A stretch of 64,000 nucleotides of DNA from an uncultured Thermodesulfobacteriota bacterium (GTDB taxonomy: Bacteria; Desulfobacterota; WTBG01; CAIYCZ01): contig CAZQKW010000017.1 of NCBI GenBank assembly GCA_964594075.1, positions 1,290 to 65,289 of the forward strand, given 5' to 3'. Both the position numbers and the translations under genes were made by a program. The notes under the pieces were generated by a model. That model was given only the letters and a program-made list of their open reading frames with translations. It had not been told where the DNA came from and did not search any database. Position 1 is the first letter of the stretch, and every line of letters begins with the position of its first letter. Positions 1,822 through 42,790 of this stretch are shown piece by piece.

Positions 1822-2660
1822 AAAACCCTTTTGCAATACTTGGCATAACGCCGGAAATGTGCAATCGTCTGCAGGACGAAGATCTGTTTGTGATGGTTAA
1901 GTCCGCATACCGCGCATTGCAGACAATTTATCATCCCGACCGCGGGGGTTCCCATAAAAAGGCAATCGAAGTAAATCTTGCATTTGAAATGCTTGATTAC
2001 CGGAAAAACCAGGATAAATTTGTCAGATATAAAGAACTATATATAAAACGGCTCTCGCGGAAATCAGCAGACCGCGCAAAAGAACTGGAAGCACAGCTTG
2101 AACAGCAAAAGTCTGTGTGCCGGAAAACTGCACAGCATTATTATGACTACATTCTCAACCTGATTGGCTGTGACGAACGGAAAAATTCCATTTCCTCTTT
2201 AAAATCAATACGGATTGGGCTCAATGATGTGGCGTTGCAGCAAAATCTTTCCCATGCCATGCCGGTATACGGCGCAAATTACAAGCAAATCAGAATTGAT
2301 GAGCAGGGGCGCAGTTTTGTGAAAGAGGTCGGTTCGTCGACATATCATGAGCGCAAATACACGCAGTTATTGGGCAGCATACCCCGCGACGCAATAGAAA
2401 TTCTGCCCCATTTACAGGGATATGAGACAACCCCGCACGTGCCCTTTAACCTGCGCAATACAAACAAACTGTTGGGGTATCAGAAACCGGTATTTAAAAA
2501 TATTGTGTTGCGCGAAAATTTTATTGTTTACTGTCTGCCTCATCTTGTGCCGTGCATCAAAGAAAATAGTTACCTGATTTCCATCAACCGTAAAAATAAA
2601 AGTTTAATTCTTGAAGGGATTATTATAAAAATCAGCCACGAGGGCAGCTCTATGACGTAG
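1818..2660 (+). CDS. J-domain (DnaJ class C) protein with unknown C-terminal domain
   Basis: N-terminal PFAILG...KSAYRAL..YHPDRGG with the HPD motif. ATGA overlap with the queC stop. Confidence 0.8.
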
Positions 2661-33410: not shown

Positions 33411-33502
33411 AGGCTATCATTAATTGTCTGGAGAAAGCTCTATTTTGAACAATATTGTGCTATAATATATTACAAAGTAAATATTCTTTGGTATCACTGT
33501 AT

Positions 33503-34528
33503 ATGAAAATATTTTGTACCTGTTTATTGTTATTATGTCTTGCCGGTTGCATGGTTAATCCGGTAACATTGAAGAGTGAATTCAATGTTGTCAGCGAAGA
33601 ACGAGAATTAAATATCGGCAGGCAGGCGCACCCGCAAATTATCAAACAGTTTGGCTATTACCAGAATGAGAAGCTGCAACGTTACGTCAATGAAGTCGGA
33701 CAGAGACTTGTGGCGGTTTCGCGGCGTCGGGATTTAACGTATCATTTTACCGTGCTCGATACCCCCATAGAAAATGCGTTCGCAGTTCCCGGCGGCTATA
33801 TTTACATTACCCGTGGCCTTCTGGCGTTTCTGAACAGCGAGGCAGAGCTGGCCGGGGTTCTGGGCCATGAGATTGGTCATATTGTCGGGCGAGACAGCGC
33901 CAATCAAATGTCGCAAGCTATGCTTGCACAGATTGCAGCATTAGCGGGAGCAGCAGCAACGCCATCAAGCGGGGACGCTGCTGCGGCAACCGGCATGTTG
34001 CTCAATTCAATTATGCTGGGCTATGGGCGGGAAAAGGAGTATCTTGCTGATGTTCAAGGGATAGAATATATGTATAAAGCAGGATATGACCCCAGACAGA
34101 TGGCCACATTCCAAAAAAACCTTGCTCAAATAACCGAAGGCCCGGTAGGTTATCAGGTTTACAACAGTACCCATCCTAATATGCTTGACCGCATGGAGCG
34201 CGCAACCGCCAAAGCTAAGGTGATGATGGCTATGAATGACGCTATGGCGCAGATAAATATCGAAACCGCCAGCCACACAACGGCCGCGCACAATAATATC
34301 CAAGTATTGTCAGATAAATATAAAGAGTATTTGGATGGGCTTGCGTATGGGCCGAAAGAGAACCTGCGGCATATCAAGATCTATACAGTTCAGGAGGGCG
34401 ATACACTGCCGCTGATAGCAAAAAAGACCATGGGCAGCGAACATTATGCGAAAGAGCTTGCTGAACTTAACGGCCTACCGCTTTCTATGCAGCTTGTCCC
34501 GGGCACGAAAATAAAAACCATACTTTAA
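33503..34528 (+). CDS. M48 family metallopeptidase lipoprotein with C-terminal LysM-like domain
   Basis: Lipobox LAGC, NAFAVPGGYIY, HEIGH, E..AD, STHP, YTVQEGDTL..IA. Confidence 0.88.
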   Translation: MKIFCTCLLLLCLAGCMVNPVTLKSEFNVVSEERELNIGRQAHPQIIKQFGYYQNEKLQRYVNEVGQRLVAVSRRRDLTYHFTVLDTPIENAFAVPGGYIYITRGLLAFLNSEAELAGVLGHEIGHIVGRDSANQMSQAMLAQIAALAGAAATPSSGDAAAATGMLLNSIMLGYGREKEYLADVQGIEYMYKAGYDPRQMATFQKNLAQITEGPVGYQVYNSTHPNMLDRMERATAKAKVMMAMNDAMAQINIETASHTTAAHNNIQVLSDKYKEYLDGLAYGPKENLRHIKIYTVQEGDTLPLIAKKTMGSEHYAKELAELNGLPLSMQLVPGTKIKTIL

Positions 34529-34533
34529 GCAGA

Positions 34534-35565
34534 TTAGGATGCTGCACACCAACTTCGCCCAGCAGCCTTAACGAAGAGTTCCAGCCGTCTCATCATTTCG
34601 AAAAATTTATCTGGTTTTAAGGATTGGATTCCATCGCTCTGCGCATGATCCGGATGCGGATGAACCTCTATCATGAGACCGTCAGCTCCCGCGGCAATCG
34701 CCGCAAATGACATGGGTGCAACCAGTTTCCAGTGGCCGGTCCCATGGCTCGGGTCGACGATTACCGGCAAATGGGTGCGTTCTTTCAAAAGGGGCACTGC
34801 GCTCAGGTCAAGGGTATTGCGGGTTGCCGTTTCAAACGTGCGTATGCCGCGCTCGCATAAAATAACCTGCATATTCCCCTCTGACAAAATGTATTCCGCC
34901 GACATCAAGAACTCTTCTATCGTTGTCATCATGCCGCGTTTTAAGAGCACCGGTTTCGTGCATTTGCCGAGCGCTTTAAGCAGCGCAAAGTTCTGAACAT
35001 TGCGTGCGCCGACCTGAAGTATGTCTGCATGCCGTGAGATCAGATCAATGTCTCCCGGATTCATAATTTCGGTGACTACCGGCAGGCCGGTTACCTGGCG
35101 CGCCTTGTCTAATAAGACTAAACCTTCTTCCTCCAACCCCTGAAAGCTATAGGGTGATGTGCGCGGCTTAAACGCACCTCCCCGCAAGACTGTTGCCCCC
35201 GCTTCCTTCACCGCAGCGGCAGTTTCAATTATTTGCTGTTCGCTTTCAATTGAGCATGGGCCGGCAATGACCACTATTTCATCACCACCAATGAGCACTT
35301 TATCATTAATTCTGATGATAGACTTATCCTGTTTTACTTCGCGACTGGCAAGTTTATATGGCTGCAGGATGGGAACAACTTTTTCAACACCCGGCAAGGT
35401 TTCCAGAGCCAGCAATTTATCTTTGCCGCGCTCGCTGCCTACCGCGCCTATAACGGTTCTTTCTGTGCCGTAAATTATGTGCGGCTGATAGCCCAATTCT
35501 TTGATAGTATCAAGAACTTCTTGAAGTTCTTCGGGGGATGTTTTAGCCTTCATAACGATTATCAT
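34534..35565 (-). CDS. aroF: DAHP synthase type I-beta with N-terminal regulatory domain
   Basis: [53 protein letters not shown]. Confidence 0.93.
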
Positions 35566-35583
35566 TGGAATTTCCTCCTAACG

Positions 35584-35619
35584 AAAAGAGCCAAGTAAGC
35601 GGTTGCTTCCATGGCTCTT
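35584..35619 (-). terminator. Attenuator terminator in the aroF leader
   Basis: AAGAGCCA ... TGGCTCTT TT hairpin with inner AAGC/GCTT, just upstream of the AGGAGG RBS. Confidence 0.8.
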
Positions 35620-35691
35620 TGTCAATAGTAAAACAAGGCCATGAGCAGTTTAACAACTCTGCCCATGGCCTGATTGTGTGCGCTGTATCGT

Positions 35692-35754
35692 TCAGGGACC
35701 ACAGGCAGAGCGTCTAAAAATAAAGTAATAAAAAGAAAAATTGCACGTATGCAT
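35692..35754 (-). CDS. Phe/Tyr-rich leader peptide MHTCNFSFYYFIFRRSACGP
   Basis: Six of codons 6-13 are Phe or Tyr. AGGACGGG RBS. Lies between the promoter and the attenuator hairpins. Confidence 0.8.
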   Translation of the reverse strand: MHTCNFSFYYFIFRRSACGP

Positions 35755-35799
35755 GGATTACCCGTCCTAAATGAAATTATTAATTATCTTCACGAAAAA

Positions 35800-35828
35800 A
35801 CTATAATAAAAGGGGATAAGAATGTCAA
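35800..35828 (-). promoter_or_regulatory. Sigma70 promoter of leader-aroF
   Basis: On the minus strand TTGACA (35828-35823), 17 bp, TATAGT (35805-35800). Confidence 0.8.
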
Positions 35829-36067
35829 GCAATCTCATTATAGGGCACGCCAGGGATTTCTCCGAAAATACCTTATTGGTGGCGGGTAAAAAAGCCCCAG
35901 ACGTTCATATTAAATCCCATTATTCCCGTTGCGTCGTAATATTCTCATGCGGGTTACCTAAATTGCAGGGCTCATTTAGGGAAAGGCCTGGCTACAAGCA
36001 CCTTGACATTTATATTATATTATTTTATTAAAATAAACAGCAGTTTTAAGGTCTTGAAAATCCAATT

Positions 36068-36316
36068 ATGAAAAATAAATTCCACGCCGTTATATTCCCG
36101 GTATGGAGCGTTGAAAATACCAGAATTATCTTGGTATGCGCCTTGATAAGTTTTCTGGGCGGTCTGGGCGGCGCGTTACTGCTCCACTTTAAAATGAAAA
36201 CCATGGGCATTGTAACATGGCATGTCGGCCTATTTGCACTCCTGGTATATTTTTCCTATTATCTCAAGGGCGTATATCAGAAATACATGGACTGTGCCTG
36301 GGATGTCTATTATTAA
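36068..36316 (+). CDS. Small two-TM hypothetical membrane protein
   Basis: 82-aa ORF with two hydrophobic segments. TTGACA at 36003 upstream and a terminator downstream. Confidence 0.5.
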   Translation: MKNKFHAVIFPVWSVENTRIILVCALISFLGGLGGALLLHFKMKTMGIVTWHVGLFALLVYFSYYLKGVYQKYMDCAWDVYY

Positions 36317-36368
36317 TTTAATCCGGCATAAGAGGTAACATTTTAAGAATTGTTACCTGGAGCAGAAG

Positions 36369-36398
36369 GGCAGGAGTCAAAATGATCCTGCCTTTTTT
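36369..36398 (+). terminator. Intrinsic terminator
   Basis: GGCAGGA / TCCTGCC stem followed by TTTTTT. Confidence 0.65.
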
Positions 36399-36599
36399 CA
36401 TGCCATTATGAATAATTGCCCACAGAGACGTTAAAGAAATTTTAATTTTCCGCTCACGCAGGGATTTTTGGGAGTTCAGCGAGTCGTTTCCTATTGTCCC
36501 ATTTTTTCATGAAATTTTGACAGAACCTTTTTCATTGTATAGGAGATCATATAATTGGGGCACAGATAACTACTGGAAAAAAATTGCATAATGTTATGA

Positions 36600-36698
36600 G
36601 GCATCCTGCGACGTGATCGCAGGATCTAACAGTGGATAGAACTTATTACCGGCATGTGTAAACAATTCTTGGATTCTGCGGTCGAGCTGCGGAATGAC
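36600..36698. repeat. Inverted pair of REP/RPE-like palindromes
   Basis: GGCATCCTGCGACGTGATCGCAGGATCTA (+) and GTCATTCCGCAGCTCGACCGCAGAATCCA (-). Confidence 0.6.
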
Positions 36699-36888
36699 TC
36701 TGTGGCTTAATTAAATTTGTTCTTTTTTCAAATAATTTTCACAGTTATAAGATGAGGCAGTATTTTTTCATTGGATTGGATACGCCGCCGTATGTGCAAA
36801 TCGAAGCATTAAGTAAAATTTGACAAAGCGCAACAGTTTCTATAAATGCCTATTATTCAATCATTTCATTTTTCATATTTAAATCATA

Positions 36889-39800
36889 ATGAAGAAGAAA
36901 AATACTATTATACTATTGTCCTCAATAGCGGGTATTTTTTGCGTGGTTATCGTTTTATCACTGCTTGCGCCTGCTTTCATAACTCAAGAAATCATTACCA
37001 AGAAGATTGTCCAGGAACTATCCCAAAAGCTCGATGCCGAGGTGCAGGTAAAACGTAGCGGGCTGTCTATATTCCCGCGCCCGCGTGTTGCGGCGTATGA
37101 ACTAACCGTAATTTTTAGCGACCGGGCGACGCTGAATATCGCCGAAGCGCAGCTCTACCCGGCACTTTTACCGCTTCTTAACGGGACAGTTCAGCCAGCG
37201 CATATTCATGTCATTGCGCCGCATCTAAGCTTCTCGATGCCGTCATACCAAACAGCTCCGCCCGCGCTGGGGCACGATGTTACCATAGCAGGCATTCAGA
37301 AGCGCGCCGCAGAAAGTATCAGGAAGGTGCTGCACACCGCCCCGTTGAGTTCTGTTGTGGTGAGCGGAGGAGACATACAAATCACTGCCGGCGAAAATAC
37401 GTTGTTCAGCTTCAGCGGTGTCCGCGGGCAACTACAATGCGCCACGGACCGCGCGTCAGTTACCATTCGATGCGGATCAAACATGTGGAAGAAAGCGGCG
37501 CTCCAGGCTGCTGTACTCTTCAGCGATATGCAACTTGACGGCACGGTCTCTTTCTCCGAGCTTGATCTCCACCCAATACTTAAATATGTTTCTCCCGACG
37601 CCTTCTCCATTGTGAAGTCTGTTATAGACGGGGAAGGCAGCATTGTAGTTGATACGTCCGGCTTGATCGGCGCACGTTTTAAGGTCGCCGTCCCCTCCCT
37701 GTCTGTCAATAAACAGGGAGAGCAACAGATTATTAAGGGTGCATTGCAATCAGTAGGGTTGAAGACTGACTTACAGAATACCTTTGTCGCTGTTGCCGGA
37801 ATATTTGAATACCCTCTGCTTAACGTTTCAGGCACGTGCAGCATAGAAACCGCGCAGCGCACCATTCGTTTTGAAGGGGAAGGGAAAAATATCGATTTAG
37901 GTTCATGTGCAGAGGTTGCCGGGTCTTTTTTCAGACAGCAACCACAGTTCAGAGAAATTGCCGGCCGGATAAAAGGCGGCACCTTTTCCGATGTCTCGTT
38001 CAAGGCACAGGGGCCGCTGGGTTTAGATATTGTCGGCAATAAGAACTTTGTGCTGCGCGGAAGATTATCCCGCGGCCATCTGGTGATTACAGAAGCAAAC
38101 AGTGAGGTTGAAGACTTAAGCGCTGATGTTACTGCGCAGAATGGCATTCTGGTAGCACAGAACATTCATGCCCGCTGTGGGCAGTCGCGCATTGATAACG
38201 GCTCGGTGCAGATTGATCTTTCCCGGCAATATAAACCGCTGCTGATTGACACTGAATTTACCGCTGATGTCTCGCAGTTGCCCCGTTTTCTGCATCTTAT
38301 CCCGGAAAGCATCGTGCGACGAGAGCTTTCGCTTATTCAAAATCCTCAAGGGACGGGCAGCGGACGGTTTACGATGCGCGCTATGCGTGATTCCCATTTC
38401 ATAGACATAGACCTGACTGGGTTGCGCCTGGAGGCGCGTTACCGCTCATTTCCCATGCCATTGAAACTGAGCAAGGGACAATGCGCCTATCAGAACGGCA
38501 TACTGTCATTTAGTGATGTTTCCGGAATCCTGGGCAAGTCAATGGTTCAACATACCGCAGCATCTTTCAATCTGGGGAATGCCCCGGCCTTGAGTATCGC
38601 AACGAACGATGCAACGGTTGACCTTGAAGAACTGCGGATGGCGCTTAATTCATTTCCTGCAACGCACCGTATTATCCGCGATATTACCCGCTTAACGGGT
38701 CAACTTACCATTCGTTCTTTAGCAATTAATGGGCCGTTGCGCAGTCCTCAACAATGGAAATTTATGCTGCGGGGGGAAGTCCGAGATGCACAACTGGCGG
38801 CAACACAACTGGAAAGTGCGGCAACCATTAAAAACGCCACCCTGCAGATTAATCAGGATGTATTTTCCATGATTGGCGCGCACGCTGAGTATCTTGACAG
38901 CAGCCTCAAAGGAACGCTTTACCTTAAAGATTATCTGCAGGGCATCACGAGCCTTAAACTCACCGCCCGAGGATCAGTCGGACAGAAATCTGTGCTGCAG
39001 ATAATGGACTTAATTAACGCACCGGCAGAACTTGTGCCTCATGGGCCGTTGTTATTCAAACAGTCGCAGCTTATCTGGACGCGAAACGGCCTGACGGAAT
39101 TTAACGGCGATTTTTCCTGCGCCCGCGGTCCGCAGATTGTTGTTTCTATGCAGGCTCAGCCACAGACGCTGGAGATCAAAAAACTCCAGATTACCGATCA
39201 GGCCTCGGAGATCCTCATCAGCCTGGGCATGCAAAAAGATTTTTTTGATTTTACATTTAAGGGTCATATTGAAAAAGCCACTGTGGATCGTGTGCTCCTT
39301 AATAATCAACTGATGAACGGCTGGATTAATGGGGATATGACGGCACGTCTGAATTGGAGCAATCCTCTGCATTCAACCGCCACGGGAACGCTGGCGTGGG
39401 AAGATATACAGCACCCCCGCATTGATACTTTTCCGCTTAATATTAAAAGCGCATCCCTTACTGCGCAAGGCAAGAAACTCACGATTAAGAACGCTCAGGT
39501 TACCGCCGGATCAAGCACCGGCACAGCAGAAGGCAGTATCGTATTCGAGAGGGAAGGGTACATTCTTGATCTGCAGCTTGCTGCAAACCGCCTCAACCTT
39601 GATGAATTCCATATCATGGCAACGCGCAACAGCAGCGACGGCGGTGAAAAGAATCTGTGGGAAATACCTGTGCGCGGCACGGTTCTGCTCACCGCTCAAT
39701 CGCTCAGCTTGGGACCGCTGGCATGGCGCCCGTTCCATGCTACAATTACCGTTGCAGACCGGAAAATAACAGTTGCCGCTATTGATTCAAAATTGTGCAG

Positions 39801-40515
39801 CATCGAAACACCAGGCACGATAGTTGTGGCCCCCGGCGGAATGCACATTTCAGCTCAACCGGCAGTTCAAAACGCTTCGGCACGAGAGATTATTCAGTGT
39901 GTAACCGGCAAACGAGCTGTTATTAGCGGCAGAATTAATCTGCAGGGTGATTTTGTAGCGCACGGTTCTGCGGATGACGTAATGAACACCCTCAGGGGAA
40001 ACCTCTCAATTGTTGCCCGCAAGGGCCGGATTTATCGTTCCAATCTGTTCACCAACATCCTGTCCTTTTTGAGCGTTAGGAATCTTATCTTGGGAAGAAA
40101 AGCCGATATTGCAGAAAAAGGATTTGCCTACCGATCGCTCTCCATTAACGGTGAATTTCACGGCAATACTTTCAAGATACATGAGGGTGTTTTAGACAGC
40201 AATACCTTGAGTCTTGCCTGTGAAGGCACGTATAACCTCTCCAATAAACGCATGGATTTAACGGTGCTGGCAACACCATTTCAAATTTACGATCTGGTGT
40301 TAATGAGTGTCCCGGTGGTGGGCATGGTTTTTGGCAGGACGCTTATTGGCGTGCCGATACGGGTGACCGGCGCGCTGGACGATCCGAAACTCGGGCCTGG
40401 AAATCCCGCAGCCATACCACGGGGTATTTTGGGCATTTTCAAAAATATTGTTAAACTTCCCGTAAGAATAATTGAACCGATTATGCCGCAGAAGGATTCT
40501 GAAAACAGGAGGTAA
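36889..40515 (+). CDS. Large AsmA-like / YhdP-like protein
   Basis: 1208 aa, N-terminal anchor, beta-rich, C-terminal GTYNL..MDLTV.. and PIRVTGALDDP. Confidence 0.75.
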   Translation: MKKKNTIILLSSIAGIFCVVIVLSLLAPAFITQEIITKKIVQELSQKLDAEVQVKRSGLSIFPRPRVAAYELTVIFSDRATLNIAEAQLYPALLPLLNGTVQPAHIHVIAPHLSFSMPSYQTAPPALGHDVTIAGIQKRAAESIRKVLHTAPLSSVVVSGGDIQITAGENTLFSFSGVRGQLQCATDRASVTIRCGSNMWKKAALQAAVLFSDMQLDGTVSFSELDLHPILKYVSPDAFSIVKSVIDGEGSIVVDTSGLIGARFKVAVPSLSVNKQGEQQIIKGALQSVGLKTDLQNTFVAVAGIFEYPLLNVSGTCSIETAQRTIRFEGEGKNIDLGSCAEVAGSFFRQQPQFREIAGRIKGGTFSDVSFKAQGPLGLDIVGNKNFVLRGRLSRGHLVITEANSEVEDLSADVTAQNGILVAQNIHARCGQSRIDNGSVQIDLSRQYKPLLIDTEFTADVSQLPRFLHLIPESIVRRELSLIQNPQGTGSGRFTMRAMRDSHFIDIDLTGLRLEARYRSFPMPLKLSKGQCAYQNGILSFSDVSGILGKSMVQHTAASFNLGNAPALSIATNDATVDLEELRMALNSFPATHRIIRDITRLTGQLTIRSLAINGPLRSPQQWKFMLRGEVRDAQLAATQLESAATIKNATLQINQDVFSMIGAHAEYLDSSLKGTLYLKDYLQGITSLKLTARGSVGQKSVLQIMDLINAPAELVPHGPLLFKQSQLIWTRNGLTEFNGDFSCARGPQIVVSMQAQPQTLEIKKLQITDQASEILISLGMQKDFFDFTFKGHIEKATVDRVLLNNQLMNGWINGDMTARLNWSNPLHSTATGTLAWEDIQHPRIDTFPLNIKSASLTAQGKKLTIKNAQVTAGSSTGTAEGSIVFEREGYILDLQLAANRLNLDEFHIMATRNSSDGGEKNLWEIPVRGTVLLTAQSLSLGPLAWRPFHATITVADRKITVAAIDSKLCSIETPGTIVVAPGGMHISAQPAVQNASAREIIQCVTGKRAVISGRINLQGDFVAHGSADDVMNTLRGNLSIVARKGRIYRSNLFTNILSFLSVRNLILGRKADIAEKGFAYRSLSINGEFHGNTFKIHEGVLDSNTLSLACEGTYNLSNKRMDLTVLATPFQIYDLVLMSVPVVGMVFGRTLIGVPIRVTGALDDPKLGPGNPAAIPRGILGIFKNIVKLPVRIIEPIMPQKDSENRR

Positions 40516-40810: not shown

Positions 40811-42538
40811 TTAAACGCCCCAAAATGAATCAATTTCTTCAGAGGTAAAATCCCACACCACATTATGCGGCGGACACGGCTCGTCAAAGAACTCCGGTAA
40901 GCGGTCATGTGTGTTGCTGAAACCGGCCGCAATATTAAATTCATGTTCGGTTCGCAGTATTTTTCTGCCCAGCGTGCGACCGTCATCTGCCGTCATTTCT
41001 AAATCATATTTGGCGTTAATCATATCAAAGACCAGAGAAAACACTTCCGGCTTATCCAACAGGGGGAACATAACGAAAATACAAAGGCCGGTACTGTCGA
41101 TTAACGCAGTGCCGATCTGCAATTTTCGTGAAAGTTCAACTTCGCCTTCTTTCCGCAACGGATCAACAAAACCCCCGATTCGTAATATGTTTACCGGGAT
41201 ACAGTAACCAGCAGTATGGTCGGCGCCCATCGTTGACGTCGCATAGGTTATCCCCATACCTTTTACCGGCCGTGGATCATAAGCGGGCAGGGCCTGATTT
41301 TTTACCACCGGGACTCTGGTCACACCGTATGCTCTGCCGACCGCTGCGGCACCCGAGCCAATGATTCTCCCCAGAGGAGTGCCCTCGCTGATTTCTTTAA
41401 GCAGGCGGAGCGCACCGGCACCGTCGCCAAAAGGTATGATTCCGGCTTCCATCGCAACACCAATTGCCACAGCGGTTTCTATTGTGTCAATGCCAATATC
41501 ATCGAGAAGGTGGTCTATTTCAGCAATAATGTCCAGATCTTCTATGCAGCAGTTGGCGCCAAAGCCCCAAATTGTTTCATATTCAAAGCCGGATGTCACG
41601 TAATTGCCATTTTTGTCGTTATATACCTGTGAACATTGTATGACACATCCTGCATGGCAGGCATGATGCGGTTTGCCGTTTCGATTTAAAATAGTTTCAC
41701 GCATGGTTTCGCCGCTTATTTTCTCAGCCGCTGCAAATCTGCCGTAATGAAAATTTCGGGTTGGAAGTCCTCCTGATTCGTTCAATATGTTTACCAGCAC
41801 ATCGGTCCCATACGTCTTCAGTGCCTGGCCACTTACCGGATGATCGACCAACGCCTTTGCAAACGCACGGGCAGCGATCTTAAATTTTTCCTGGTCAAAG
41901 ATTTTTACTCCGGGTCCATCAGTGGGATCTATGGTGATATATTTGACTTTTTTGGAACCCATAACGGCGCCCAATCCGCCGCGGCCATGGCTGCGAATAT
42001 AACCATCAGGATCCTTTACCGAAATATTAGCAGCCACCAGGCGTTTTTCCCCAGCGGGGCCGATGGACAGCATACCGGTTTTATCTCCATGTTTTTTTAT
42101 GAGCGTTTTCATGACGGCATAATTTCCCTTGCCGACTAATGTTTTTTCCTCCTGAATTGCGACGCCATCTTTAGTAACATGAAGACCATACCATGCATCT
42201 TTTTCCGGCAGTCCCTCAATAATAAGCGCTTTAATGCCTAACCGGGCAAGACACTGGGCAGCCGTGCCCCCCGCGTTGCTCTCTTTTATGGTGCCGGTCA
42301 GCGGACTTTTAGCACCCGCAGAAAGCCGTCCAGAATTTGGACATGTGGTTCCGCCAAGCATACCGGGAGCAAAGACCAGCTTATTCTGAGCGCCCAGCGG
42401 ATTGCAGGTCGGATTCACTTCATGGGCAACAATATTAGACGTCAACCCTCTGCCGCCGAGCACGCTCCATTTCTCCGGAACATCCTCAACTGTTGCCGTA
42501 AGCGTCGTCATGTTAACGCGATAAATTTTCTCTGCCAT
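40811..42538 (-). CDS. aor: Aldehyde:ferredoxin oxidoreductase (W-bis-pterin AOR family)
   Basis: KSPLTG.IKESNAGG, GRGGLGAVMGSK, CHAGCVIQC, EYET, D.IGIDTIE, GADHT. Confidence 0.93.
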   Translation of the reverse strand: MAEKIYRVNMTTLTATVEDVPEKWSVLGGRGLTSNIVAHEVNPTCNPLGAQNKLVFAPGMLGGTTCPNSGRLSAGAKSPLTGTIKESNAGGTAAQCLARLGIKALIIEGLPEKDAWYGLHVTKDGVAIQEEKTLVGKGNYAVMKTLIKKHGDKTGMLSIGPAGEKRLVAANISVKDPDGYIRSHGRGGLGAVMGSKKVKYITIDPTDGPGVKIFDQEKFKIAARAFAKALVDHPVSGQALKTYGTDVLVNILNESGGLPTRNFHYGRFAAAEKISGETMRETILNRNGKPHHACHAGCVIQCSQVYNDKNGNYVTSGFEYETIWGFGANCCIEDLDIIAEIDHLLDDIGIDTIETAVAIGVAMEAGIIPFGDGAGALRLLKEISEGTPLGRIIGSGAAAVGRAYGVTRVPVVKNQALPAYDPRPVKGMGITYATSTMGADHTAGYCIPVNILRIGGFVDPLRKEGEVELSRKLQIGTALIDSTGLCIFVMFPLLDKPEVFSLVFDMINAKYDLEMTADDGRTLGRKILRTEHEFNIAAGFSNTHDRLPEFFDEPCPPHNVVWDFTSEEIDSFWGV

Positions 42539-42572
42539 AATTCCTCCCTTTTCAATTTAGTGAAAGTTTCTG

Positions 42573-42679
42573 ATAACTCTCCTTTCCCAAAGGGAGGCCC
42601 TGCTGTTTCCAGCAAAACCCTGTGGCCTGTTACCGTGAGAGCATTAGCATTCTTTTAGGTTCAGAGGCTCGGAGATTAT
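42573..42679 (-). ncRNA. Moco RNA motif riboswitch, P3-less (Tuco-type) variant
   Basis: CUCCGAGC, P2 (CUCUG.ACC..GGU..CAG), GGCC-AC-AGGG, a GAAA-tetraloop stem (UUUUGCUG/CAGCAGGG), then CCUCCC..GGGAAAGGAG. P1 closes AUAAUCUCC/GGAGAGUUAU. Directly upstream of aor. Confidence 0.85.
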
Positions 42680-42790
42680 TAATATTGTAAGTTTAACACA
42701 TTAAATGCATTCATTGCCAGCATTTTATCAAGGGGTCCCGGCCGAGAAAAGATTGTGAAAGAAATTCTCACTGGTTCGTTTTGCAGTTTT

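Follow-up and report, generated by a model that had tools for sequence, protein, structure and literature searches.

A candidate leader-peptide attenuator family upstream of type I-beta DAHP synthase genes in Thermodesulfobacteriota and Methylomirabilota

Direct reading, folding and comparative analysis of a 64,000-nucleotide (nt) stretch of DNA from an uncultured Thermodesulfobacteriota bacterium (contig CAZQKW010000017.1; the whole stretch is referred to here as the window) support the existence of a conserved, uncatalogued family of leader-peptide attenuators upstream of type I-beta 3-deoxy-D-arabinoheptulosonate 7-phosphate (DAHP) synthase genes, found in Thermodesulfobacteriota and Methylomirabilota. 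As far as sequence comparison can support it, the family is characterised by a chain of alternately pairing segments resembling that of the his leader, by what we judge to be usually two terminators, and, in the lineage of the window, by the lack of a protector segment. We consider it likely that the element acts as a ribosome-mediated transcription attenuator of DAHP synthase, sensing charged tRNA-Phe and tRNA-Tyr. An initial annotation of the window had proposed a Phe/Tyr attenuator with five-segment logic, and this logic is supported by a conserved upstream open reading frame (uORF), by covariation of both sets of helices, and by masked and length-series folding.

Leader peptide and alternately pairing segments

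The element is read on the minus strand of the window, and all of its coordinates are positions within the window. A promoter is followed by a short leader open reading frame (ORF), by five segments that can pair as 1:2 and 3:4 (ON) or as 2:3 and 4:5 (OFF), and by the gene for DAHP synthase. In the list below, T1 and T2 are the hairpins 2:3 and 4:5.

35828-35823 (-): -35 hexamer TTGACA (direct reading and promoter scan)
35805-35800 (-): -10 hexamer TATAGT, spacer of 17 nt (promoter scan)
35768-35765 (-): Shine-Dalgarno-like AGGA, 10 nt 5' of the leader ATG (direct reading)
35754-35692 (-): leader ORF MHTCNFSFYYFIFRRSACGP, 20 codons plus TGA (direct reading and ORF list)
35739-35716 (-): putative regulatory codons Phe6, Phe8, Tyr9, Tyr10, Phe11 and Phe13 (direct reading)
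35710-35699 (-): segment 1, CUCUGCCUGUGG, 5' arm of helix 1:2, within leader codons 15-21
35696-35692 (-): extension of segment 1, CCUGA, which includes the stop codon and pairs with UCAGG
35671-35657 (-): segment 2, AGGCCAUGGGCAGAG, partner of segment 1 (ON) or segment 3 (OFF)
35673-35657 (-): segment 2 in its extended form, UCAGGCCAUGGGCAGAG (folding and covariation)
35648-35635 (-): segment 3, CUGCUCAUGGCCUU, partner of segment 2 (hairpin T1) or segment 4
35636-35624 (-): U-rich tail after hairpin 2:3, UUGUUUUACUAUU (direct reading)
35619-35609 (-): segment 4, AAGAGCCAUGG, to 35621 with the preceding CA; partner of segment 3 or segment 5
35593-35584 (-): segment 5, UGGCUCUUUU, to 35580 with the tail UUUUCGUU; 3' arm of T2 and U-tract
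35579-35574 (-): AGGAGG, Shine-Dalgarno sequence of DAHP synthase (direct reading)
35565-34534 (-): putative regulated gene, type I-beta DAHP synthase of the aroF/aroG-2 type (profile match and structure alignment)

Six aromatic residues fall within codons 6 to 13 of the leader, with UUU at all four Phe positions (6, 8, 11 and 13), UAU at Tyr 9 and UAC at Tyr 10; by comparison, aromatic residues make up about 7.6% of the ordinary proteins of the window. The last aromatic codon lies 5 nt from segment 1, and the stop codon 4 nt past it.

Helix 1:2 consists of 12 base pairs (bp), including two wobbles, and is lengthened to 17 bp by the CCUGA/UCAGG pairing. Helix 2:3 has 13 bp, and helix 3:4, with the core CAUGGC/GCCAUG, reaches 13 bp with two bulges. 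The calculated hairpin energies are -26.9 kcal/mol for 1:2, -23.3 for 2:3, -13.7 for 3:4 and -18.2 for 4:5, and the fold of the whole leader beats 200 of 200 dinucleotide shuffles (z = -3.46). An intrinsic terminator is present between the uORF and the gene: hairpin 4:5 is followed by UUUUCGUU, and hairpin 2:3 by UUGUUUUA. A simple terminator consensus scan missed both hairpins because their loops are longer than 8 nt. When the window was searched for a second copy of the element, using the segment 2 motif with up to 2 mismatches, only a chance-level match was found.

The leader promoter matches the consensus at 11 of 12 positions and ranks first among eight promoter-like sites in a scan of 35000-37000. 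From its position, transcription is predicted to start at about 35793, which would give a 5' untranslated region (UTR) of about 39 nt. The AGGA is a possible ribosome-binding site of the leader, although it is weak and its distance from the ATG is near the upper limit of what is usual. The protein encoded downstream has 343 amino acids (aa), matches NF006421 at 1e-152, and can be aligned from end to end, including the N-terminal regulatory domain, with the DAHP synthase of Thermotoga maritima (1RZM/3PG9, 1e-103). By these matches it is identified as the pathway-opening enzyme of aromatic synthesis, of the Tyr/Phe-inhibited T. maritima type. Its AGGAGG starts immediately 3' of the T2 tail UUUUCGUU, with 8 nt between AGGAGG and ATG. 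Because the next gene (33455-34528) runs on the opposite strand, the DAHP synthase gene is apparently monocistronic, and the leader would control this one gene.

The promoter, the leader ORF and the five segments lie, on direct reading, where the initial annotation had placed them on the minus strand. All four pairings that it named are present, 1:2 and 3:4 being longer than it had given, and its assignment of the enzyme to the T. maritima type agrees with the profile and structure matches.

On the other side of the promoter, about 1 kb (35830-36889) without any ORF of at least 100 aa separates it from a divergent AsmA-like gene (36889-40515, plus strand). This interval holds short ORFs only, for example one of 82 aa at 36068-36316 (plus strand).

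Conservation and covariation in related loci

Aromatic-rich uORFs, defined as those with at least six Phe, Tyr or Trp within eight residues, were sought in the 300 nt upstream of each related DAHP-synthase locus. They are present at 71 of 142 loci, as against one in the reverse complements and none in the shuffles. What is conserved is the aromatic composition and the position of the stop codon relative to segment 1, despite diverging nucleotide sequence: among 56 distinct loci, the last aromatic codon is 5-6 nt from segment 1 in 50, and the stop codon lies 2-24 nt past segment 1 in all 56. The closest genome matches to the window protein, at 73-74% identity, come from uncultured Thermodesulfobacteriota, while a metagenome scan recovered a near-identical locus (L081, 99%) and one with an 88% identical protein (L082). 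The orthologous uORFs of these two loci are MHPCNFSFYYFIFRRSACGP and MHQSNLSFYSFYFRYSASGP, respectively, and that of L001 is MRQSFISRFFWFYFSFSPSAGGA; more distant examples come from Geobacteraceae (MNSNRFYIAFSFYFWFGFYFRPSARVEV), from the Syntrophales type (MERLKFRNFGFWFSYYYIYGQVCPSLRRT) and from Methylomirabilota (MSTSIRWFGFAFFYFAEVRPPA). One Trp is present in most leaders (51/56), with none in the window or in L082. Among the loci examined, no aromatic-rich uORF was found at DAHP-synthase loci of Nitrospinota, Hydrogenedentota, Bacteroidota, Acidobacteriota or Bacillota.

The 56 loci were aligned with MAFFT without structural information (alignment A2), and all five segments were aligned. The helices of the window were mapped onto the columns of A2 and pairs were counted for each state, with the 3' partner slid by 1-3 columns and 500 shuffles as controls. 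Defining the five segments by a greedy RNAduplex chain search gave helices that were too long, and the MAFFT alignment with column-defined pairs was used in its place. Both states are supported. For 1:2 with 3:4, standard pairs occupy 74.9% of cells (at most 49.3% when slid), the covariation score is 0.232 (at most 0.090 when slid, and reached by 0/500 shuffles), and 124 cells are changed on both sides (at most 54 when slid). The corresponding values for 2:3 with 4:5 are 78.4% (at most 58.6%), 0.272 (at most 0.148; 0/500 shuffles) and 168 cells (at most 56). An example of covariation in helix 1:2 is given by columns 22-91, with UA in 37 loci, CG in 8 and UG in 8. RNAalifold, run blind on A2, independently gave the 1:2 core and 4:5.

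Segment 3 shows covariation with both of its proposed partners. Its column 112 covaries with column 86 of segment 2 (GC 20, UA 17, CG 8) and also with column 164 of segment 4 (CG 28, AU 15, GC 8), and columns 113-163 of helix 3:4 are CG in 33 loci and UA in 16. Moreover, the core of segments 2-5 shifts in concert between clades, as follows.

CCAUGG: the window, L001-3 and the Syntrophales type
CCGGGG/CCCCGG: Geobacteraceae
CCGCGG: Methylomirabilota
CCACGG/CCGUGG: several Desulfuromonadales

Changes of this kind are to be expected only where segment 3 is constrained to pair with 2 as well as with 4. The matching cores, which two independently evolving hairpins would not be expected to keep, would be explained by selection for the 3:4 cross-pairing. 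Conservation in A2 is limited to the alternately pairing segments; no conserved unpaired loop or pocket was seen in this alignment. As judged from the uORFs and the covariation, the element is real and conserved in relatives beyond chance. The initial annotation had suggested looking in relatives for the Phe/Tyr-rich uORF and for covarying 1:2, 2:3, 3:4 and 4:5 pairs, and both are found, the former at the 71 loci and the latter across the alignment.

The TTGACA -35 box upstream of the leader is also kept in Geobacteraceae and Methylomirabilota relatives. The Geobacteraceae loci (L006-L027, L039 and L083-L096) show TTGACA, a spacer of 17-18 nt, (TG)nTTTAGT, exactly 7 nt, and then the leader ATG, and no Shine-Dalgarno sequence was found in the 50 nt upstream of that ATG. 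In these bacteria the mRNA from which the leader peptide is translated is probably leaderless, as opposed to the predicted 5' UTR of about 39 nt in the window. Geobacteraceae (e.g. L008-L010, L016, L025, L052 and L070) also have a long-range helix between bases 5' of segment 2 (CCACAAAC) and bases 5' of the aroF Shine-Dalgarno sequence (GUUUGUGG), which covaries among loci (CACAAAAC/GUUUUGUG, CCGAAA/UUUCGG, CCGGAA/UUCCGG); no counterpart was seen in the window.

Some loci depart from the common arrangement. In L082 (1393-1500), as well as in L004 and L126, an extra 95-170 nt separate the second terminator from the start codon of DAHP synthase. L004 has hairpins that look like 2:3 and 4:5, at about 170-280 nt upstream, and a search of 450 nt gave no aromatic uORF. 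L005 (2700-3000), from an uncultured Thermodesulfobacteriota with a 74% identical DAHP synthase, shares its promoter type with the window, and its second terminator (AAGAGCCAUGG...CAUGGCUCUUUUUUU) is almost the same as the window's, but it has no aromatic uORF; the sensor part is replaced by another long hairpin, AAAAAACCGC...GCGGUUUUUU, which has no Rfam match. The L005 leader could be a decayed element or a different sensor.

Ribosome position, terminators and competing explanations

The window leader was folded with its 5' part masked as far as 12 nt past the A-site codon's first base and with its 3' end shortened to mimic transcription; all folding results are equilibrium calculations. Helix 1:2 forms if there is no ribosome or if its A site is no further than Phe11, and the minimum free energy (MFE) structure is 1:2+3:4 for 3' ends from 35609 to 35590. 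When the A site is placed at the stop codon, 2:3 forms, followed by 4:5. The family behaves similarly: if segment 1 is free and the transcript stops after segment 4, 1:2+3:4 is obtained in 48 of 56 loci, and with the ribosome at the stop codon, 2:3 is formed in 55 and 4:5 in 53. Median hairpin energies over the family are -29.0 kcal/mol for 1:2, -21.9 for 2:3, -24.4 for 3:4 and -21.5 for 4:5. The ON helices have the higher median stability, and should therefore win whenever segment 1 is available. The masked folds and the spacing between segment 1, the stop codon and the aromatic codons fit the states expected of a ribosome-position switch, within the limits of equilibrium calculation. Folding with and without segment 1 masked, a check put forward in the initial annotation, gives the expected states in truncated transcripts.

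The model that we infer from the sequence features, the conservation of the uORF, the covariation of the four helices and the energetics extends to uORF translation, stall positions, termination at T1 and T2, and kinetics. Transcription would begin about 39 nt 5' of the 20-codon leader ORF, whose codons 6-13 carry four Phe and two Tyr, and whose last six codons together with the stop codon make up segment 1. When Phe and Tyr are plentiful, the ribosome would reach the stop codon and cover or unwind segment 1, upon which segment 2 would pair with 3 (T1) and segment 4 with 5 (T2), and the polymerase would face two terminators before the gene. When Phe or Tyr is scarce, the ribosome would stall at codons 6-11 and leave segment 1 free; 1:2 would form first, segment 3 would then pair with 4, neither terminator would form, and DAHP synthase would be transcribed. 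As the lineage of the window lacks an upstream segment over the regulatory codons, an untranslated leader should read through by default.

The number of terminators was addressed through the U-rich tails, defined as at least 6 U in the 8 nt after the hairpin. Such a tail follows 2:3 in 40 of the 56 loci and 4:5 in 26; it is found after the first hairpin only in 22 loci, after both in 18, after the second only in 8, and after neither in 8. In the window, the tails UUGUUUUA after 2:3 (6 U in 8 nt) and UUUUCGUU after 4:5 are of similar quality, and L082 has U7 after both hairpins. Hairpin 2:3 is therefore probably a first, weaker terminator (T1) in its own right, a function that for the window is suggested by its sequence. 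With U tails on both hairpins, the OFF state would present two terminators in series. The initial annotation had taken 4:5 as the only terminator; a terminator hairpin is indeed found there, but 2:3 probably terminates as well.

Several observations weigh against this mechanism. The Shine-Dalgarno sequence of the leader in the window is weak and distant. The U tracts of both window hairpins are interrupted (UUGUUUUA and UUUUCGUU), and on 4:5 a good U tract is missing from some of the Geobacter clade, so that a terminator role of this hairpin is not universal. Because the loci are phylogenetically related, fewer independent events lie behind the covariation than the cell counts suggest. With a ribosome at Phe13, the beginning of segment 1 is covered and the predicted fold is the terminated one, and induction would therefore come only from stalls at earlier codons. 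At equilibrium, the full-length leader slightly prefers 2:3+4:5 even with segment 1 free, and in a transcript ending after segment 3, 2:3 is the MFE structure in 39 of 56 loci. Given this equilibrium preference for the OFF state, the ON state would have to rest on kinetic trapping; as in other attenuators, the decision would be a kinetic one.

Within the attenuator reading, we tentatively suggest that two sequence-matched terminators stand in series under one leader peptide and are controlled by a domino of strand exchange with ON as the default, making up a two-checkpoint, kinetically proofread attenuator. In this arrangement 1:2 would free segment 3 and 3:4 would block 4:5, and it would be translation through segment 1, rather than stalling, that actively represses. 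A plausible benefit is that a late ribosome would free segment 2, which would retake segment 3 from 4 and so arm the second terminator. We know of no leader-peptide case of this kind. A somewhat doubtful alternative holds that only 4:5 terminates and that 2:3 is purely an anti-antiterminator keeping segment 3 from 4, with the decision taken at one point, about 35584. This version fits the loci of the closest clade (L001-L003) and of Methylomirabilota, which lack a U tract after 2:3 and have a good one after 4:5, as well as the interruption of the window tail after 2:3 (UUGUUUUAC). However, this tail still has 6 U in 8 nt and is no worse than the UUUUCGUU that follows 4:5, the nearest informative relative (L082, with its 88% identical protein) has U7 after 2:3, and a U-rich tail is found at this position in 40/56 loci. 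It is unlikely that the switch has three segments only, with 1:2 opposed to 2:3, helix 3:4 functionless, and 4:5 an unregulated back-up terminator or structural element left over from a duplication. The better U tract on 2:3 and the poor one on 4:5 in many Geobacteraceae, and the appearance of the two hairpins as diverged copies, would be accounted for in this way, but an unregulated terminator before the gene would block expression, and independent drift after duplication would not preserve the match between the cores of both hairpins, which covary between clades. Helix 3:4 is, in addition, as stable as the terminators (median -24.4 kcal/mol) and is in the MFE structure of 48/56 loci once segment 4 has been made.

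Explanations that dispense with ribosome-mediated termination altogether fare less well. Control after transcription, with the alternative folds modulating translation initiation or stability of the DAHP synthase mRNA, seems to us quite improbable: the aroF Shine-Dalgarno sequence does directly follow the U tract of 4:5, and the covarying long-range helix of Geobacter ends just 5' of it, but AGGAGG and AUG are sequestered in neither state in the window folds, and in most relatives both hairpins have the typical features of intrinsic terminators, with a U tract behind a GC-rich stem. Slightly less probable still is a riboswitch, or a protein- or tRNA-binding RNA of the T-box or TRAP/PyrR type, that senses an aromatic compound directly, with the short ORF being incidental. 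The RNA is highly structured and conserved, in Geobacter it is annotated only as a 'short RNA element', and L005 retains the second terminator under a different structured leader without an aromatic uORF, all of which such a sensor would accommodate; against it stand the lack of an Rfam match even at E up to 10, the absence of a conserved unpaired pocket or loop, and a uORF whose nucleotides diverge but which remains rich in aromatic residues and keeps the placement of its stop codon with respect to segment 1.

DAHP synthase is the entry to aromatic amino-acid synthesis, and control at the RNA level would add to its allosteric inhibition. A ribosome-mediated attenuator at this position would show how the entry step is controlled in Geobacter, Desulfuromonas, Syntrophus-type bacteria and Methylomirabilota. 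With about 70 loci in hand, there is good support for the element as a candidate new RNA family. Its natural variation lends itself to the study of attenuator evolution and of sharpening by tandem terminators, since the terminator may be on the first, the second or both hairpins, a sixth segment may be present or absent, and the leader mRNA may be leaderless or have a 5' UTR. None of this alters how attenuation is understood in general.

Relation to known attenuators and RNA elements

No leader family of Rfam (Phe_leader, Trp_leader, His_leader, Leu_leader, Thr_leader and others) was matched in 34000-37500 at E up to 10. The leader was likewise unmatched in a search of the whole window at the gathering score and in 25 related loci, including L005, L008, L045, L051 and L082. 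Elsewhere in the window, at 42563-42686 (minus strand), there is a molybdenum/tungsten cofactor riboswitch (RF01055, 69.3 bits, E 1.3e-14), immediately 5' of an aldehyde:ferredoxin oxidoreductase-like ORF (40811-42538, minus strand). In L045, a Syntrophales metagenome-assembled genome, two unrelated cobalamin riboswitches (RF00174, 88 and 98 bits) are found at 981-1150 and 2452-2627 (minus strand), upstream of the DAHP synthase locus.

The nearest published description is that of Aklujkar et al. 2009 (PMC2700814), who noted a conserved sequence, Gmet_R0069 / GSUR082, predicted to be a short RNA element, 5' of aroG-2 in several Geobacteraceae, preceding Gmet_0346 = GSU3142, and said only that it 'may participate in regulation'. 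It resembles the window element in its position directly 5' of a T. maritima-type DAHP synthase, and its size (192-272 nt) and clade also match; it differs in that a leader peptide, alternative helices and terminators are not reported in PMC2700814. The Geobacteraceae loci in our set (Oryzomonas, Geomonas and Geobacter metagenome-assembled genomes) align with the window element, and, from position, size and clade, Gmet_R0069/GSUR082 very probably belongs to the same family. The family would then explain the Geobacter element that was left unexplained in 2009. In the literature searched, no later paper mentioning Gmet_R0069/GSUR082 was found, nor was an attenuator of this kind described in Thermodesulfobacteriota beyond the 2009 note, although Russian-language studies of delta-proteobacterial attenuators lay outside the search and may contain a prior prediction. 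The statement in the initial annotation that the arrangement was not known for this lineage thus stands with regard to the mechanism, for which no publication was found, but not with regard to the element, which had been flagged in Geobacteraceae in 2009.

Leader peptides have been linked to DAHP synthase genes elsewhere. In Corynebacterium glutamicum, the aroR leader peptide lies upstream of the aroF operon (Neshat et al. 2014, via PMC11802643); according to PMC11802643, this Phe-Tyr-Phe peptide controls the DAHP synthase gene by attenuation, the response to Phe limitation was demonstrated by experiment, and Tyr is without effect. It belongs to another phylum and has a much shorter aromatic run; the comparison made here is of the peptide and the regulated gene. 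The uORFC-13-1 motif found 5' of aroF in Acholeplasma by the Breaker laboratory (PMC8632094) combines a predicted Phe-containing uORF with an adjacent intrinsic terminator; it comprises 24 representatives from Acholeplasma and environmental sequences only (PMC8632094), and its architecture, as described, differs from that of the window element.

The leaders of pheA and pheST (pheL; Rfam Phe_leader) and of the trp genes share with the present element the ribosome-mediated mode, here proposed, the runs of Phe or Trp codons, and the mutually exclusive antiterminator and terminator. They differ in that there are four segments, the first of which contains the regulatory codons, and a single terminator, and in governing pheA, pheST or trp genes rather than DAHP synthase; their Rfam models find no match here.

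The closest architectural parallel is the his leader (hisL) of Salmonella and E. coli, in which the alternative helices are A:B, C:D and E:F versus B:C and D:E. In both cases the leader peptide contains regulatory codons in a run, and after it comes a chain of more than four alternately pairing segments whose last helix is the terminator; a chain of at least five such segments ending in a terminator is present in the window, where segments 1-5 correspond to B-F. In both, too, a ribosome at the stop codon masks, or in our case would mask, the first arm of the read-through set. The initial annotation had described this coverage as opposite in polarity to that of trp, which is an artefact of numbering: a ribosome that has reached the stop codon covers the 5' arm of the antiterminator in trp and his as well.

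There is no sequence similarity to the his leader and no Rfam match, and the signal would be Phe/Tyr/Trp here as opposed to His. A sixth, A-like segment pairing the regulatory-codon region with segment 1 was not found in the lineage of the window or in Geobacter (median z -0.6 over 56 loci); the upstream leader of the window matches segment 1 over only 7 bp with two G-U pairs (z = -2.0), and this match is absent in L082. Without an A-like segment, the untranslated state in the window lineage should read through and not super-attenuate. Only the Syntrophales-type clade (L045, L050, L058, L066, L122, L127, L128, L130, L138, L149 and L160) has the sixth segment: segment 1, UCUGCCCAUCG, finds its complement in the region UGAUGGGCAGA at the start of the leader (peptides beginning MGK/MGR), with duplexes of -13 to -17 kcal/mol (z -2 to -4.3), and the chain is fully his-like. 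A further difference from the his leader is that the middle hairpin, equivalent to C:D, bears its own U tract in most members of the family described here.

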